IMG/VR virus record: IMGVR_UViG_3300031857_011362
Location: 60,443-124,442 of that record
Strand: one strand, 5' to 3'
DNA: 64,000 nucleotides
Source of the DNA: a virus
Of this stretch, positions 35,534 to 60,767 are shown one piece after another. Positions within the stretch are counted from its first letter, which is position 1. Each line of letters starts with the position of its first letter. The notes under the pieces were generated by a model. That model did not search any database and had not been told where the DNA came from. It saw only the letters and a list, made by a program, of their open reading frames with translations. The position numbers were made by a program, and so were the translations under genes.

Positions 35534-35608
35534 GGGTCTTTAGTTCAATGGATAGAATGCCATGCTTCGAACTTGGAGATGTGGGTTCGATTCCTGCAAG
35601 ACCCGCCA
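35534..35608 (+). tRNA. trnR: tRNA-Arg(TCG)
   Basis: Cloverleaf, loop CTTCGAA, CCA. Confidence 0.88.
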
Positions 35609-35654
35609 ATACGTGTTAAATACTAATAGTGACAAAGCAGAAAAGGAGTACATA

Positions 35655-36215
35655 ATGGCTGTTCTAGCACTAGATATCTCAGGAGTTCCCCGGCAGTGGA
35701 TCTCAAATGATGACGCAATTACCTATAAAGCAAAAGATGCCATCGCATGGTCAATGGGGAATATTGTGGCTAGATATCGCGGTGGTATTCAAAATGACGG
35801 CACATTAAGTTACTTAGAAGCATCTAGTATCATTGCTATCAAAGGTCACGGATTTAATCCATACAAACATGCATGTGTCGCACTAAGTAACAAAACATTG
35901 TTTGGTCGTGATAGACATGTGTGTGCTTACTGTGGTGAACAGTTTCCTAATTACCATATGTTAAGTCGTGACCACATTGTTCCGAAGAGCAAAGGTGGTG
36001 AAAACACTTGGATGAACGTAGTTACCGCATGTAAAGATTGCAACAGTAATAAAGGTCATAAAAGTTTGAAGGAAGTGCGTATGGAATTATTGTATGCACC
36101 TTATGTACCTAATCATTACGAGAATATGATTCTACAACATAGAACAATTCTCGCAGACCAAATGGAATACTTGTTAGCAGGTGTTCCCAAGCATAGTAGA
36201 ATTCTCCTAAGCTAG
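35655..36215 (+). CDS. HNH endonuclease (McrA-like family)
   Basis: RD..VCAYCG..DHIVPKSKGG..W.NVVTAC..CN..KG; RBS AAGGAG. Confidence 0.9.
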   Translation: MAVLALDISGVPRQWISNDDAITYKAKDAIAWSMGNIVARYRGGIQNDGTLSYLEASSIIAIKGHGFNPYKHACVALSNKTLFGRDRHVCAYCGEQFPNYHMLSRDHIVPKSKGGENTWMNVVTACKDCNSNKGHKSLKEVRMELLYAPYVPNHYENMILQHRTILADQMEYLLAGVPKHSRILLS

Positions 36216-36537: not shown

Positions 36538-36732
36538 ATGTTAGTAAGTAATAACGCAGGTTATAAATTGTATTGTGAAGTGCGCAAACTTGACGTACAC
36601 CCACAAGACAATCATGTACGTATATTCACCACATATGACTGGTCTAAAAATCCGGAAGCAGAACAAAACAAAATTGAGTTGTTCCTTAGTGACATTGAAC
36701 TTGATGCACTTAGGAAGGCACTTGCATCATGA
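36538..36732 (+). CDS. Hypothetical protein
   Basis: RBS GGAG, 64-aa ORF. Confidence 0.55.
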   Translation: MLVSNNAGYKLYCEVRKLDVHPQDNHVRIFTTYDWSKNPEAEQNKIELFLSDIELDALRKALAS

Positions 36733-37314
36733 TTGGATCATTAACTGCCATTCTTCTAAACTAAAGTGGTAGTCTTCTAAGGTTTCTAACATTTTTGCAA
36801 AAACTATCAATGTTCTTCTATGAGTGGTTAATTCATTTTGACGTTGAGTAATTTTTTCTTCTACTAGGGTTTTTAGTAAATTCTCACCCTCTTTTTTCAT
36901 TTTGATTTTTTGAGCAATGGTGTTTAACTTTTTTATTGTGTTATTACATTCTAGTATGACATTGTTTGCTTGATGTTGTGCCTGATGAATGTCAACTTTC
37001 ATTCTTAAAATCAAATCATCAACATCAGGATTTATATGTTGAGTAAAATGAGTTATCATATTAGACAGTCTAGTGTATACCTCATTGTCAATATTTGTAT
37101 CGTCATAATGTTCACCGGTAGAATCGTAATGGGCACGTTTTGTAGGATCACCTAGTGTTTCATAAGCTAATTTAATTCGTTTGAATTTTTCTTCATTTCC
37201 ACCTGGCCTGTCTGGGTGATGAATTTGTGCTAGAATTCTATATTTTTGTTTGATTTCTTCGGAAGTACAATTTTTAGGTAATTCTAGTTCATCATATAAG
37301 GTAGGTTGTTCCAT
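36727..37314 (-). CDS. J-domain (DnaJ-like) protein
   Basis: LY..LEL..EEIK..YR.LA..HHPDR..F..I..AYE.L.DP. Confidence 0.88.
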   Translation of the reverse strand: MEQPTLYDELELPKNCTSEEIKQKYRILAQIHHPDRPGGNEEKFKRIKLAYETLGDPTKRAHYDSTGEHYDDTNIDNEVYTRLSNMITHFTQHINPDVDDLILRMKVDIHQAQHQANNVILECNNTIKKLNTIAQKIKMKKEGENLLKTLVEEKITQRQNELTTHRRTLIVFAKMLETLEDYHFSLEEWQLMIQS

Positions 37315-39403: not shown

Positions 39404-40194
39404 GTTCTGAGTGTCTCCGGATACTGTGACCCGCAAAGTAGTAGTATGACCCGTTAGGCATAAATAATAGTATGAAAGAATACTATGTTTATGCCTATTT
39501 GAGAGAAGACGGAACTCCTTACTATATTGGTAAAGGTAAAGAAAGACGTGCCTGGGAGCAACATCGTTCTAACGGAAAAGGAGTTCATACTCCATCTGAT
39601 TATAAACGAATAGTGTTATTATATGAAGATTTAGATGAACCCGCCGCATTTAATTTAGAAACTGAATTGATTTCAAAGTATGGAAGACAAGATTTAGGAA
39701 CAGGTATATTAAAAAATATGACCAATGGTGGCGAAGGATCTGCAGGAACTTCACCAGAAACTAATTGGAAAAAAGGTAGTTCGAAAAGAAGTAAAACGAC
39801 TAGTAGTAAAACTAGACAAAAAATAAGCAAAGCAAATAAAAATCGTGATTACCCAAACAATCATACCGAGGAAGTTAGACAAAAGTTAAGCGAGACAACA
39901 AAGAAATCTTGGGAAACAAGACCGAGAACAATGTCCGAAGAACAAAAGAAAAAGATATCAGACGCCGCAAAAGAACGCTGGCGTTTGAGGAAGAACCCGC
40001 CCAGGTAACGCTGGGCTAGTCTGATCCAGACGAAGGAGAAGTAAGTTCGTAACTTACGGGTGGTAGTCTTTAAACCCAAAGGCCGCTGGCAATGCGAGAA
40101 CGGTCCCTGTCGGGAAGCGGGTGGAAGGAGTGTGTGATGGGTATGATAGCGTCATATCTTTCTGTACTATAATTACCGCCGGGGGATGCAGAGC
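39404..40194 (+). ncRNA. Large ornate RNA candidate enclosing a GIY-YIG ORF
   Basis: 5' GTTCTG-A-GTGTCTCCGG pairs with 3' CCGGGGGATGC-AGAGC; many GC-rich hairpins at 39995-40194. Confidence 0.5.
39472..40008 (+). CDS. GIY-YIG homing endonuclease with NUMOD3-like repeats
   Basis: YVYAY..TPYYIGKG, LETELI, NMTNGGEG, repeated S.E.KKKIS; own CATAAATA late motif. Confidence 0.88.
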   Translation: MKEYYVYAYLREDGTPYYIGKGKERRAWEQHRSNGKGVHTPSDYKRIVLLYEDLDEPAAFNLETELISKYGRQDLGTGILKNMTNGGEGSAGTSPETNWKKGSSKRSKTTSSKTRQKISKANKNRDYPNNHTEEVRQKLSETTKKSWETRPRTMSEEQKKKISDAAKERWRLRKNPPR

Positions 40195-40905: not shown

Positions 40906-40998
40906 GCCCCTGTAGTTTAATGGTTAAAACGGCGGATTTATATCCCGTAAGCAACAGATAATTGGTTCATGTGGGTTCGATTCCCTCCAGGGGTACCA
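40906..40998 (+). tRNA. Atypical 93-nt tRNA with TAT anticodon (Ile?) and 22-nt variable region
   Basis: Acceptor GCCCCTG/CAGGGGT, D arm GTTT/AAAC, loop TTTATAT, T loop TTCGATT, CCA. Confidence 0.75.
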
Positions 40999-41592: not shown

Positions 41593-41757
41593 ATGATAAC
41601 AGAATACAAAGTTATAAACGCTACATATGAAGAATTTCATAAAGAAGTAGCAAAGTTATTGTCTGAAGGCTGGCAACCGCAAGGTGGTGTTAGTGTAGTT
41701 CGTAGTTGGTATAGTAATGATCCAACAACTTATTACTTTCAGGCATTTGTTAGATGA
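41593..41757 (+). CDS. Small hypothetical protein (DUF1737-like)
   Basis: V..LL.EGW.PQGGVS..YFQA motif. Confidence 0.55.
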   Translation: MITEYKVINATYEEFHKEVAKLLSEGWQPQGGVSVVRSWYSNDPTTYYFQAFVR

Positions 41758-41807
41758 TTTTAACTGAAAATTTCGTCTACCGCATAAATACATCATAGGA
41801 GACTATT

Positions 41808-42410
41808 ATGTATTGTGATTATGGATGCGGTCAAGAATCATCTTTCAAATTGAAGAATGGTAAAAATTGTTGTGCTACGAGAACAGCAAGTTGCCCTGAA
41901 CAAAAAAGAAAAAATTCAGAAGCAACAAAGAAAGTTTATGATGACGGTAAGAGATTACCGGCAGCTCTGGTATATGAAAATTTATCAGAAGAAGTTAAAA
42001 AACGAATGAATTGGAATAAGGGAAACTTTTCTAATACATTGTTTGTTTATAATGGTGTAGGTAATCATAAAGCTGTGTTGATTCAAGAAAAAGGTCACCA
42101 GTGTGAAGATTGTAGATTGACTGAATGGAAATCTAAACCTATACCGTTAGAGTTAGAACATGTTGATGGTGACAACAAAAATAACACAAGAGAAAATCTT
42201 AAGTTGTTATGTTGTAATTGTCATGCTTTGACTCCAACTTGGAGAGGTAGAAATATTAATTCAGGTAAAGTTAAAGTAAGTGACCAAGAACTATTGACAG
42301 CATTGCAAGAATGTAGTAATATACGTCAAGCATTGCAGAAAGTGGGGTTATCTCCGAAAGGTGGTAACTACCAAAGAGCAAATAAATTAAATGCGACCTT
42401 GGTGAAATAG
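41808..42410 (+). CDS. HNH endonuclease overlapping tRNA-Leu 5' end
   Basis: CEDC..LELEHVDGD..NN..ENL..LCCNCHA; RBS AGGAG; CATAAATA upstream. Confidence 0.9.
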   Translation: MYCDYGCGQESSFKLKNGKNCCATRTASCPEQKRKNSEATKKVYDDGKRLPAALVYENLSEEVKKRMNWNKGNFSNTLFVYNGVGNHKAVLIQEKGHQCEDCRLTEWKSKPIPLELEHVDGDNKNNTRENLKLLCCNCHALTPTWRGRNINSGKVKVSDQELLTALQECSNIRQALQKVGLSPKGGNYQRANKLNATLVK

Positions 42411-42690
42411 GTAGACACAAGAGACTTGAGAGTAAAATTTGAGTGCCCTAGTGGAAATGCTAGGAGTAGAACCCGTCAAATTCGGTGAAGGCTGTAAAAT
42501 GCTAATACCGAGCGAAGCCTAAGTAGAAATACTTTTGAACGTGTAGAGACTAGACGGCGGGCATCTAAAGCAGTAATGCTATGATGAAGGTATAGTCCAG
42601 ACCACAAAACTGTAAAGGTAGTGAAAACTATAGTGGTAAGAAAATCTCTCGCCGAAAGGCATCCCGGTTCGATTCCGGGAGGTCGCACCA
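42393..42690 (+). tRNA. trnL: tRNA-Leu(TAA) interrupted by a group I intron (exons 42393-42427, 42641-42690)
   Basis: Spliced arm AGAGA-CTT^AAAA-TCTCT, acceptor GCGACCT/AGGTCGC, long variable arm, CCA. Confidence 0.92.
42428..42640 (+). mobile_element. Group I self-splicing intron (trnL-UAA/IC3-like), 213 nt, no ORF
   Basis: P1 CTT/GAG with U-G, P2 CCTAG/CTAGG, P3 CCGTC/GACGG, P4 TTCGGT/ACCGAG, P7 GACTA/TAGTC, terminal G. Confidence 0.92.
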
Positions 42691-45502: not shown

Positions 45503-46090
45503 TTATTGACTAACTTCGGTTAGTGTCGCTGCAAGCTCGATAAAACCATATTGATAATCTTTTAATAAAACTATCATATGTTCAAGTGTTTCTTTCCGAT
45601 GTTGAAAGTTTTTTAAATCTTTGTTGCGAGTTGATAGTTGAGTTTCTAAAAATCCTAAAAGAAGATTTTCTTCTTGTGGATTTTTATGTATCAATTTTTT
45701 CTTTGCAACATTCAGATTTACAATCTGTTGATTACATTGTGCTATGCTCAATTCATTTCGAGTTAACTCTCCGTTAACTTCATAACGCATAGTGTCTATT
45801 AAATTTGCATGGTGTAAATCAATATTAGCAATTACGGTAAAGAAAACGTTAGCTAGTTGTGAAATTGCCTCAGCCCCTACATTTAGGGATTCTGCGGTAG
45901 AGTTAGTTTCATCATATAATTTCCTGCGACTTGGGTCAATTAAAACCTCGTATGCAAATTTTATTCGTTGAAATTTTTCAGTATTTCCTCCTTTATCGGG
46001 ATGGTGTATATTAGCTAAATGACGATATTGGTGTTTGATTTCTTCAATCGTGCAATTTCTGGGTAATTCTAGTTCTTCATAAAGAGTCAT
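45503..46090 (-). CDS. J-domain (DnaJ-like) protein
   Basis: HHPDKGG..F..I..AYEVL.DP; paralog of 36727..37314. Confidence 0.88.
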   Translation of the reverse strand: MTLYEELELPRNCTIEEIKHQYRHLANIHHPDKGGNTEKFQRIKFAYEVLIDPSRRKLYDETNSTAESLNVGAEAISQLANVFFTVIANIDLHHANLIDTMRYEVNGELTRNELSIAQCNQQIVNLNVAKKKLIHKNPQEENLLLGFLETQLSTRNKDLKNFQHRKETLEHMIVLLKDYQYGFIELAATLTEVSQ

Positions 46091-46253
46091 ACTAGTATTT
46101 AGTTTGTCCAAATAAGTAGTAAACATTAGCGATGAATGTTATAATTTATGTTAACAATAAAGTAAAGTGAAATGACTACAGCAATTTAAAAAATTCTAAA
46201 GTAAAATACCCATAGAAAGCGGTTGTAGAACAGTAGCAGACATTATTAATTAT

Positions 46254-59765: not shown

Positions 59766-60767
59766 ATGACAACATACGCACTCATCGATACGGCAAACAC
59801 TTTTTTTAGAGCACGCCACGTAGCATCACGTGGTGCTTCCGCAGAAGAAAAGGTAGCACAAGCATTGCATATCACCCTCGCTTCAGTGAACCAAGCGGTC
59901 CAGCGTTATAAGATCGATCACGTTGTCTTCTGCTTAGAGGGTAGATCGTTTCGCCGTGATCTGTACGCACCTTATAAGAGGAATCGTGTAGTTGATGAAC
60001 AATCAGTTACTGAAGAAGAATTGGAAGAGTCACGCCAATTTTGGGAAACGTATCAAGTTTTCACAGATTATATTTCACAGAAAACTAATGCAAGTGTCCT
60101 AAGGCATGAACGTGCTGAAGCCGATGACATGATTGCAAGATTTATCGCACTGCATCCAGCAGATAAACATTTTATCATCTCAACGGACACAGATTATGAC
60201 CAATTAATAACCGACAAAGTTTTTAGATACTCGGGCGTGGCCGGAGAACTTGTAACTCTCACTGGTTATCTCAAAGAGAATGGTCGGCCTGTTATTGATA
60301 AGAAAACTAAAGAGCCTAAACTGTTGGAAGATCCTGAGTACGGTCTCTTTAAAAAATTAGTCAGAGGAGATACATCCGACAATGTACATCCATCATACCC
60401 AGGTGCCAGAGAAAAAGGCACTAAAAACAAAATTGGAATCCGAGAGGCGTTCGAAGATCGTCACAAGCAAGGATTTCATTACAATTCGTTTATGCTTAGC
60501 CGATTTATCGACTATGATGGTAAGGAAGTGCGAGTTAGAGATGCATTTGAGAGGAACCGCACCCTGATTGATCTTACTGCACAACCCCAAGAAATCAAAG
60601 ATGCTGTGGATCAACGTATTCGAGAAAGTGTTCGCACAACTATCACCCCGACCGTCGGTGTACATTTCCTTCGCTTCTGTGGCAAGTATGAGTTGGTGAA
60701 GTTGAGCGAAAAGGCCGAGACCTTCAGTGCATGGTTGAACCGCCCTTACACAGGAGTACTAGCATGA
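59766..60767 (+). CDS. RNase H / 5'-3' exonuclease (T4 rnh-like)
   Basis: LID..N.FFR, YK.NR, EADD.I, STD.DY.QL, GD.SDNV. Confidence 0.9.
   Translation: MTTYALIDTANTFFRARHVASRGASAEEKVAQALHITLASVNQAVQRYKIDHVVFCLEGRSFRRDLYAPYKRNRVVDEQSVTEEELEESRQFWETYQVFTDYISQKTNASVLRHERAEADDMIARFIALHPADKHFIISTDTDYDQLITDKVFRYSGVAGELVTLTGYLKENGRPVIDKKTKEPKLLEDPEYGLFKKLVRGDTSDNVHPSYPGAREKGTKNKIGIREAFEDRHKQGFHYNSFMLSRFIDYDGKEVRVRDAFERNRTLIDLTAQPQEIKDAVDQRIRESVRTTITPTVGVHFLRFCGKYELVKLSEKAETFSAWLNRPYTGVLA

Follow-up and report, generated by a model that had tools for sequence, protein, structure and literature searches.

The split tRNA gene described here lies in the tRNA array of an uncultured virus, represented in IMG/VR by a linear record (IMGVR_UViG_3300031857_011362) of 124,442 bp with a CheckV completeness of 35%, which corresponds to about one third of the genome. 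The window, the whole stretch of DNA that was analysed, is 64,000 nucleotides long and covers positions 60,443 to 124,442 of this record; all coordinates without a contig name are window positions. The genome has a G+C content of 35–39%, and known families are missing for most ORFs of the record. ARAGORN, run with default settings, places 28 tRNA genes on the + strand between 34384 and 45485. The array spans about 11 kb, and homing endonucleases are interspersed among its tRNA genes (Table 1); it is a hotspot of homing-type genes. ARAGORN also calls a 93-nt ‘tRNA-Ile(tat)’ at 40906–40998, much longer than a normal class I tRNA-Ile, and the long ‘tRNA-Ile(tat)’ is found again in a related phage array (L184, 10976–11067). 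Placed within the array, on the strand opposite to the tRNAs, is a paralogous pair of ORFs of about 200 aa each with J-domain-like N-termini (HPD motif), at 36727–37314 (−) and 45503–46126 (−).

Table 1. Features of the split tRNA-Leu(UAA) locus, predicted helices of its intron and endonuclease genes of the surrounding array (window positions).
Feature	Position	Strand	Remarks
Free-standing HNH endonuclease gene, 200 aa	41808–42410	+	H-N-H motif; PHROG 14736 ‘HNH endonuclease’, E = 2.1e-29
5′ exon of tRNA-Leu(UAA)	42393–42427	+	ARAGORN with introns allowed; 35/35 identical to intronless phage genes
Group I intron, IC3-type, ORF-less, 213 nt	42428–42640	+	ends in G; Rfam RF00028, covariance model, covariation
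3′ exon of tRNA-Leu(UAA)	42641–42690	+	ARAGORN cloverleaf; alignment with intronless homologues
Internal guide sequence GAGT	42441–42444	+	pairs with exon ACTT at 42424–42427
P1	42424–42427/42441–42444
P2	42447–42453/42458–42464		GAAA loop
P3	42472–42477/42553–42554 plus 42558–42561
P4	42482–42487/42506–42511
P5	42490–42492/42501–42503
P6	42512–42514/42540–42542
P7, pseudoknot helix	42546 and 42548–42552/42593–42598		bulged A42547; spans P3 3′ strand and P8
P8	42562–42565/42583–42586
P9	42601–42605/42633–42637
P9a	42618–42622/42627–42631		GAAA loop
ω-G, terminal	42640
Second HNH gene in tRNA array	35562–36215		Pfam HNH_5, 8e-18
178-aa ORF in array, likely homing endonuclease	39472–40008		weak sub-threshold NUMOD3 match, E = 0.002

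The 5′ exon of the tRNA-Leu(UAA) gene comprises the acceptor strand GCGACCT, the D arm, the anticodon-stem strand AGAGA and then C32, U33 and U34 (CTT); U34, at 42427, is the splice-site U(−1). The 3′ exon begins with A35, A36, A37 and A38 and continues with the stem strand TCTCT, a long variable arm, the T arm, the acceptor strand AGGTCGC and the discriminator A; CCA is encoded at 42688–42690. When joined, the exons form a normal 85-nt tRNA-Leu(UAA), and U(−1) and ω-G lie at the only junction that restores the 7-nt anticodon loop CUUAAAA. In intron mode, ARAGORN reports tRNA-Leu(taa) at exactly 42393–42690 with a 213-nt intron (gactt^...g^aaaat). In default mode it calls no tRNA at these positions, nor does the Rfam tRNA model have a match there. 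ARAGORN calls of ‘tRNA-Tyr(ata)’ and ‘tRNA-Phe(gaa)’ on split viral genes were rejected as misplaced tRNA-Leu(UAA) junctions.

Four intronless phage tRNA-Leu(UAA) genes share 94% identity with the joined exons; one of them is part of an ordinary phage array of 23 tRNAs. Alignment with these genes leaves one gap, exactly at 42428–42640, and the 3′ exon matches all four over its first 12 bases. In addition, at least 119 other viral contigs contain the 30 nt across the ligated exons as an exact, unbroken sequence. The comparison argues strongly for a predicted junction at 42427|42641. The intronless homologues also show that phage genes sharing one anticodon arm are polymorphic for the intron.

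The Rfam model RF00028 (Intron_gpI) matches positions 42424–42615 over model positions 1–253 with 57.4 bits, against a gathering score of 50; the E-value is 6e-12 for the whole window and 3e-14 in a local search, and this is the only RF00028 match in the 124-kb record. The modest score is explained by the composition of the Rfam seed, which is without bacterial tRNA introns (10.1101/2020.01.27.920355). At the gathering threshold, Rfam has no match in the homologous loci of phages Atu_ph07 and HTVC120P and of the assembly LR756501. Since the general model is weak on these introns, a family covariance model (R1) was built from 24 of the phage introns; the window intron scores 230.7 bits with it, and no other copy turns up in the 124-kb record.

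The helices listed in Table 1 were written by hand from the window sequence, and their pairs were then counted on an alignment of 28 phage homologues, pairwise more than 10% different, from a core-motif collection of viral contigs. Standard pairs occupy 97.5% of the 1372 cells (49 pairs in 28 sequences), compared with 30–40% when the 3′ partners are slid by 1–3 columns. Both-sided (compensatory) change is found in 26 of the 49 pairs, and none of 500 shuffles matches any of the observed measures. Covariation is heavy in P2, P8, P9a and P3, where 4/4 variable pairs covary; at least one compensatory switch each is seen in P5, P6, P7 and P9. The six pairs of P7 are standard in 28/28 sequences, with the A–U pair 42552/42593 replaced by U–A in seven of them, and a bulged A, as found in this helix, is typical of the group I guanosine-binding helix. 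The family consensus of P8 contains a CCUAAG...UAUGG-like motif; this motif and the GAAA tetraloops presumably resemble the tetraloop–receptor layout of Azoarcus-type IC3 introns.

At the 5′ splice site, G42441 of the internal guide sequence forms a U·G wobble with U42427. The P1 pairs nearest the splice site (U·G, U–A, C–G) are unchanged in 28/28 sequences, the equivalent of U42427·G42441 being U·G in every homologue, and the model-anchored Leu-type introns all end in G before AAAATC. The T run at 42438–42440 could, as judged by eye, form P10 with the leading A residues of the 3′ exon. A single-sequence minimum free energy (MFE) fold recovers P2, P4–P5, P8 and P9 and misses P1 (z = −1.9 versus shuffles); MFE folding cannot show the P3/P7 pseudoknot, and this fold was left out of the evidence. 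By its predicted fold, the element belongs with the group I introns of bacterial tRNA genes (IC3 ‘Leu.3Ug’).

These results agree with most of what an earlier, sequence-only reading of the locus had proposed. Rfam (whose Intron_gpI model it had suggested, and whose match lies above the cut-off), ARAGORN in intron mode and the intronless homologues all indicate that a phage tRNA-Leu(UAA) gene is interrupted by a group I intron. The position of the 213-nt insert after U34, the classic cyanobacterial/plastid trnL site, follows from the intron-mode call and from the gap against the intronless genes, and its junction, 42427/42641, is the one that those genes imply. The core pairings and terminal G, which it had described as complete, are borne out by the support for P1–P9 in 28 relatives, by the invariant wobble and by the ω-G. 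Its expectation that tRNA scanners would overlook the gene also holds, default ARAGORN and the Rfam tRNA model both being silent at the locus.

From the conservation of the intron we infer that it splices. The steps proposed here are modelled on established group I introns. After transcription, the intron would fold into P1–P9; free guanosine bound in P7 would attack the phosphate 3′ of U42427, held in its wobble with G42441, after which G42640 would take the place of the free guanosine in the same site. The 3′-OH of U34 would then attack the bond 3′ of G42640, ligating the exons into the 85-nt tRNA. This mature tRNA would read UUA and probably UUG also, and the intron would be a selfish passenger in its gene.

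The split gene is the sole tRNA-Leu(UAA) of the 124-kb record according to ARAGORN and to the R1 search; the other leucine tRNAs in the array are Leu(CAA) and Leu(UAG). In the 53 window ORFs of at least 150 aa, TTA accounts for 40.6% of leucine codons (466/1149). With the only Leu(UAA) in the record split and TTA the commonest leucine codon, the phage would appear to need this tRNA, although the record is a partial genome and a further tRNA-Leu(UAA) copy may therefore exist elsewhere in it. It is very unlikely that the intron is a decayed, non-splicing remnant and the gene a tRNA pseudogene, with the phage using the tRNA-Leu(UAA) of its host. The host presumably owns such a tRNA, and the Rfam score is just 7 bits over the cut-off; however, all core helices are intact, with compensatory changes across 28 diverged homologues, the wobble and the ω-G are invariant, the exons are as conserved as those of uninterrupted genes, and the score of the family-specific model is 230.7 bits.

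The intron core motif occurs in at least 120 IMG/VR contigs, mostly in tRNA-Leu(UAA). Junctions were set by a U(−1)/ω-G filter with an ARAGORN check and later by model-anchored ends. Among the matches listed, a tRNA-Leu(UAA) split after U34 is compatible with 92 of 123 regions, and about 20 regions have no recognisable surrounding tRNA. Approximate assignments give Thr(UGU) split after U34 in L068 and L096 and Met(CAU) split after U33 in L062 and L072. Since its introns are found in Leu, Thr and Met tRNAs, the family has moved between tRNA genes within phages. Three contigs (L120, L046 and L123) have two to three separate intron matches each, so that a single tRNA array holds several split genes.

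In a set of 50,697 deposited phage genomes, the element is seldom encountered. The Agrobacterium jumbo phage Atu_ph07 (MF403008, about 112.9–113.25 kb, complement; L001) carries the same split tRNA-Leu(UAA), with an intron of 278 nt (in L001, 5′ exon to 1531 and ω-G at 1809); the deposited record has no tRNA feature at this locus, and the 3′ exon is overlain by a CDS annotated as ‘hypothetical protein’. A 735-kb assembly, LR756501, also has a split tRNA-Leu(UAA). A related group I intron, scoring 150 bits with R1, is found in Pelagibacter phage HTVC120P (MH598807; L003, 1449–1659) between gp29 and gp30, which are both annotated as ‘capsid protein’; the major capsid gene of HTVC120P is probably one intron-split gene. 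The window intron is no rarity: far more than a hundred viral contigs carry members of the large, unannotated, phage-borne family to which it belongs. Annotations lack this intron type because tRNA finders at default settings pass over split genes.

Related introns are also found in cellular genomes. A motif scan of species-representative genomes, using a pattern drawn from phage and plastid motifs, detects Leu.3Ug, fMet.2Ug and Arg.5Ug introns in many phyla among the matches listed, the phylum counts being a biased sample and no census. R1 finds Leu, fMet and Arg tRNA introns in Pseudomonadota, Acidobacteriota and Cyanobacteria, and introns in 39 of the 151 sampled cyanobacterial genomes. Its scores on full-length Leu.3Ug introns are 118–196 bits for Pseudomonadota, 152–192 for Acidobacteriota and 102–132 for Cyanobacteria. 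In a model-based alignment, the median identity to the window intron is 79% (maximum 91%) for the other phage Leu introns, 72% for those of Pseudomonadota, 67% for those of Acidobacteriota and 60% for those of Cyanobacteria. In an IQ-TREE phylogeny of 95 rows, all 18 sampled cyanobacterial Leu introns form one long-stemmed clade without phage rows (100/100), and the window intron belongs to a clade of seven consisting of phage introns only. The phage Leu introns are dispersed over an unresolved backbone, 37 of the 91 inner branches having support below 80. According to AU tests, a sister relationship of the window clade to the cyanobacterial clade is not rejected (p = 0.37), and monophyly of the phage Leu introns is marginally rejected (p = 0.049).

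The close likeness to the cyanobacterial trnL intron that had been read from the sequence thus stands for the insertion site, the helices and the ω-G and does not extend to the sequence itself, which is nearer to proteobacterial introns (72% against 60%) and falls outside the cyanobacterial clade. A specifically cyanobacterial origin of the window intron would have no support in these data, and no donor or direction of transfer is claimed. These comparisons also bear on the nature of the contig. It is extremely unlikely that the contig is non-viral, a bacterial (e.g., cyanobacterial) fragment or a prophage remnant whose intron would be an ordinary bacterial trnL intron. In favour of this reading, the record is a linear IMG/VR fragment from an uncultured source, and a domain search of its 124 kb did not find the large-terminase N-terminal domain (PF03237). 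However, 28 tRNAs and a split one lie within 11 kb, interleaved with homing endonucleases, at 35–39% G+C and among ORFs mostly without a known family; the same split gene is present in a cultured jumbo phage (Atu_ph07) and in the 735-kb phage assembly, the nearest introns are all on viral contigs, and identity to cyanobacterial introns is only about 60%.

The HNH gene adjoins the intron-bearing tRNA and lies outside the intron; the sole Pfam match to this ORF is weak and sub-threshold. Its last 18 nt, including the TAG stop (42408–42410), are the first 18 nt of the tRNA. With the stop inside the tRNA, 5′ processing by RNase P would remove the stop codon from the HNH message, which is a possible form of expression control. 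Among the 241 viral loci listed by either motif, there are 10 full-length HNH homologues (44–91% identity), each located directly upstream of a split tRNA-Leu and overlapping its 5′ exon by 17–18 nt. None of the matches listed has a full-length homologue beside any of the at least 119 intronless tRNA-Leu(UAA) genes. More broadly, an HNH-motif ORF lies no more than 900 nt away at 21/73 split loci versus 1/78 intronless ones (Fisher p = 7e-7; the loci are non-independent). At the other 52/73 split loci (about 70%) there is no HNH-motif ORF within 900 nt, so the intron persists there without this endonuclease.

The block 41757–42690, containing the HNH gene and the split tRNA (about 930 bp), is shared between phages as a discrete DNA unit with 77–86% identity. 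Its neighbours differ: the order is Leu(UAG)–ORF–block–Ala in the window, Gly–block–Leu(UAG) in L084, Asp–block–Met–Ser in L073 and block–Gly in L019. L073 and L220 are syntenic over a dozen tRNAs, and, at the place where L073 has both HNH and intron, the Leu(UAA) gene of L220 is uninterrupted and an HNH gene is absent; from the 3′ exon to the end of the following tRNA, the two sequences do not differ. The acceptor stem differs between L073 and L220 on both strands (GCGACCT/AGGTCGC versus GCGACTG/CAGTCGC), a pattern that could mark the boundary of a co-conversion tract.

The shared block and its changing surroundings suggest that the HNH gene and the split tRNA travel together as a cassette of about 930 bp, and the co-occurrence of HNH and intron is what collaborative homing predicts. 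The cassette would spread between co-infecting phages: the HNH endonuclease would cut intronless tRNA-Leu(UAA) genes, and the intron would interrupt the target in the cassette's own genome. Mobility is the least certain part of the explanation, with roughly even-to-good odds of being correct. Somewhat unlikely, in our estimation, is that the HNH gene has nothing to do with the splicing intron and favours the inheritance of the tRNA region as a whole, in the manner of T4 SegB, or just its own, the intron being immobile and inherited vertically. Among the matches listed, full-length homologues occur only at split tRNA-Leu genes, whose 5′ exon they invariably overlap in the same way, and the syntenic L073 and L220 differ by HNH and intron jointly. 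On the other side, the array contains other free-standing endonuclease genes (35562–36215 and 39472–40008), most split loci have no HNH-motif ORF nearby, and SegB reportedly works in an intron-free tRNA cluster (PMC2330249). Taken as a whole, the preferred reading, namely a functional tRNA-Leu(UAA) with an IC3 intron after U34, predicted guanosine-initiated self-splicing and a putative HNH–intron cassette, is given a probability of roughly 0.88.

A broader proposal, which we consider doubtful, is that large phages are a main reservoir and vehicle of IC3 tRNA introns and have been the repeated source of the Leu, fMet and Arg tRNA introns scattered among bacteria. Under this proposal, phage tRNA arrays would hold a diverse intron pool that does not resolve into one clade; cassettes of HNH and split tRNA could destroy rival intronless tRNA-Leu genes in co-infection; and the recipients would be Proteobacteria, Acidobacteria, candidate phyla and perhaps cyanobacteria. 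If true, it would explain how the ‘ancient’ trnL intron spread horizontally, a matter of long debate. For the patchy occurrence of tRNA introns across bacterial phyla, phages become a concrete vector that can be tested.

According to a 2014 review, phage introns had so far all been found in protein-coding genes, despite the many tRNA genes of phages (PMC3984707). Devoto et al. (2019) described ‘enigmatic’ introns in tRNA genes of Lak megaphages and called them the first in phage tRNAs; no intron class was given to these inserts, one of which was tRNA-like and not ribozyme-like (PMC6784885). In a 2025 paper on a group I intron database, phages are unmentioned and tRNA genes appear only for chloroplasts. 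In a full-text literature search of incomplete coverage, no paper was found that describes group I introns within the tRNA genes of phages. The present locus and its many relatives contradict the confinement of phage introns to protein-coding genes: large uncultured phages commonly carry the classic tRNA-Leu(UAA) intron type in their tRNA arrays, and one cultured jumbo phage has it as well. As a consequence of the missed genes, phage tRNA inventories and codon-supply analyses undercount tRNA-Leu(UAA), the decoder of the commonest leucine codon here. An HNH gene that ends within the tRNA also offers a compact system for the study of endonuclease–intron cooperation on an RNA gene.

The mechanism is that of an ordinary IC3 tRNA intron; it is the setting, with phage tRNA arrays, copy number and the overlapping HNH gene, that is little described. 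The window intron shares with the cellular Leu.3Ug introns (cyanobacterial/plastid trnL) the same gene, the insertion point CUU^...g^AAAA, U(−1) and ω-G, the helices and the lack of an ORF, and its homology to them is detectable by the covariance model. It differs from them in residing in a phage tRNA array and not in a cellular genome, and in the overlapping free-standing HNH gene, which is undescribed for the cellular introns. Its identity to them is about 72% for alphaproteobacterial members and only about 60% for cyanobacterial ones. The Azoarcus tRNA-Ile(CAU) intron and other IC3 introns (fMet.2Ug, Arg.5Ug) are likewise about 200 nt long, have GAAA tetraloops on P2 and P9 and cluster in the same tree, but they interrupt another tRNA at another position of the anticodon loop.

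For the proposed cassette, the nearest parallel lies in cyanophage S-PM2, for which Zeng, Bonocora and Shub reportedly described, in 2009, collaborative homing between an ORF-less psbA intron and the free-standing endonuclease F-CphI. In both cases the group I intron lacks an ORF and neighbours a free-standing endonuclease gene, and intron and gene co-occur across genomes. In contrast to S-PM2, the candidate target at the window locus is a tRNA gene and not a protein gene, and the HNH reading frame stops within the tRNA. The Lak megaphages resemble the present case in their interrupted tRNA genes and very large phage genomes; whereas the Lak inserts are without a class, the window element is, by its sequence, a canonical group I ribozyme.
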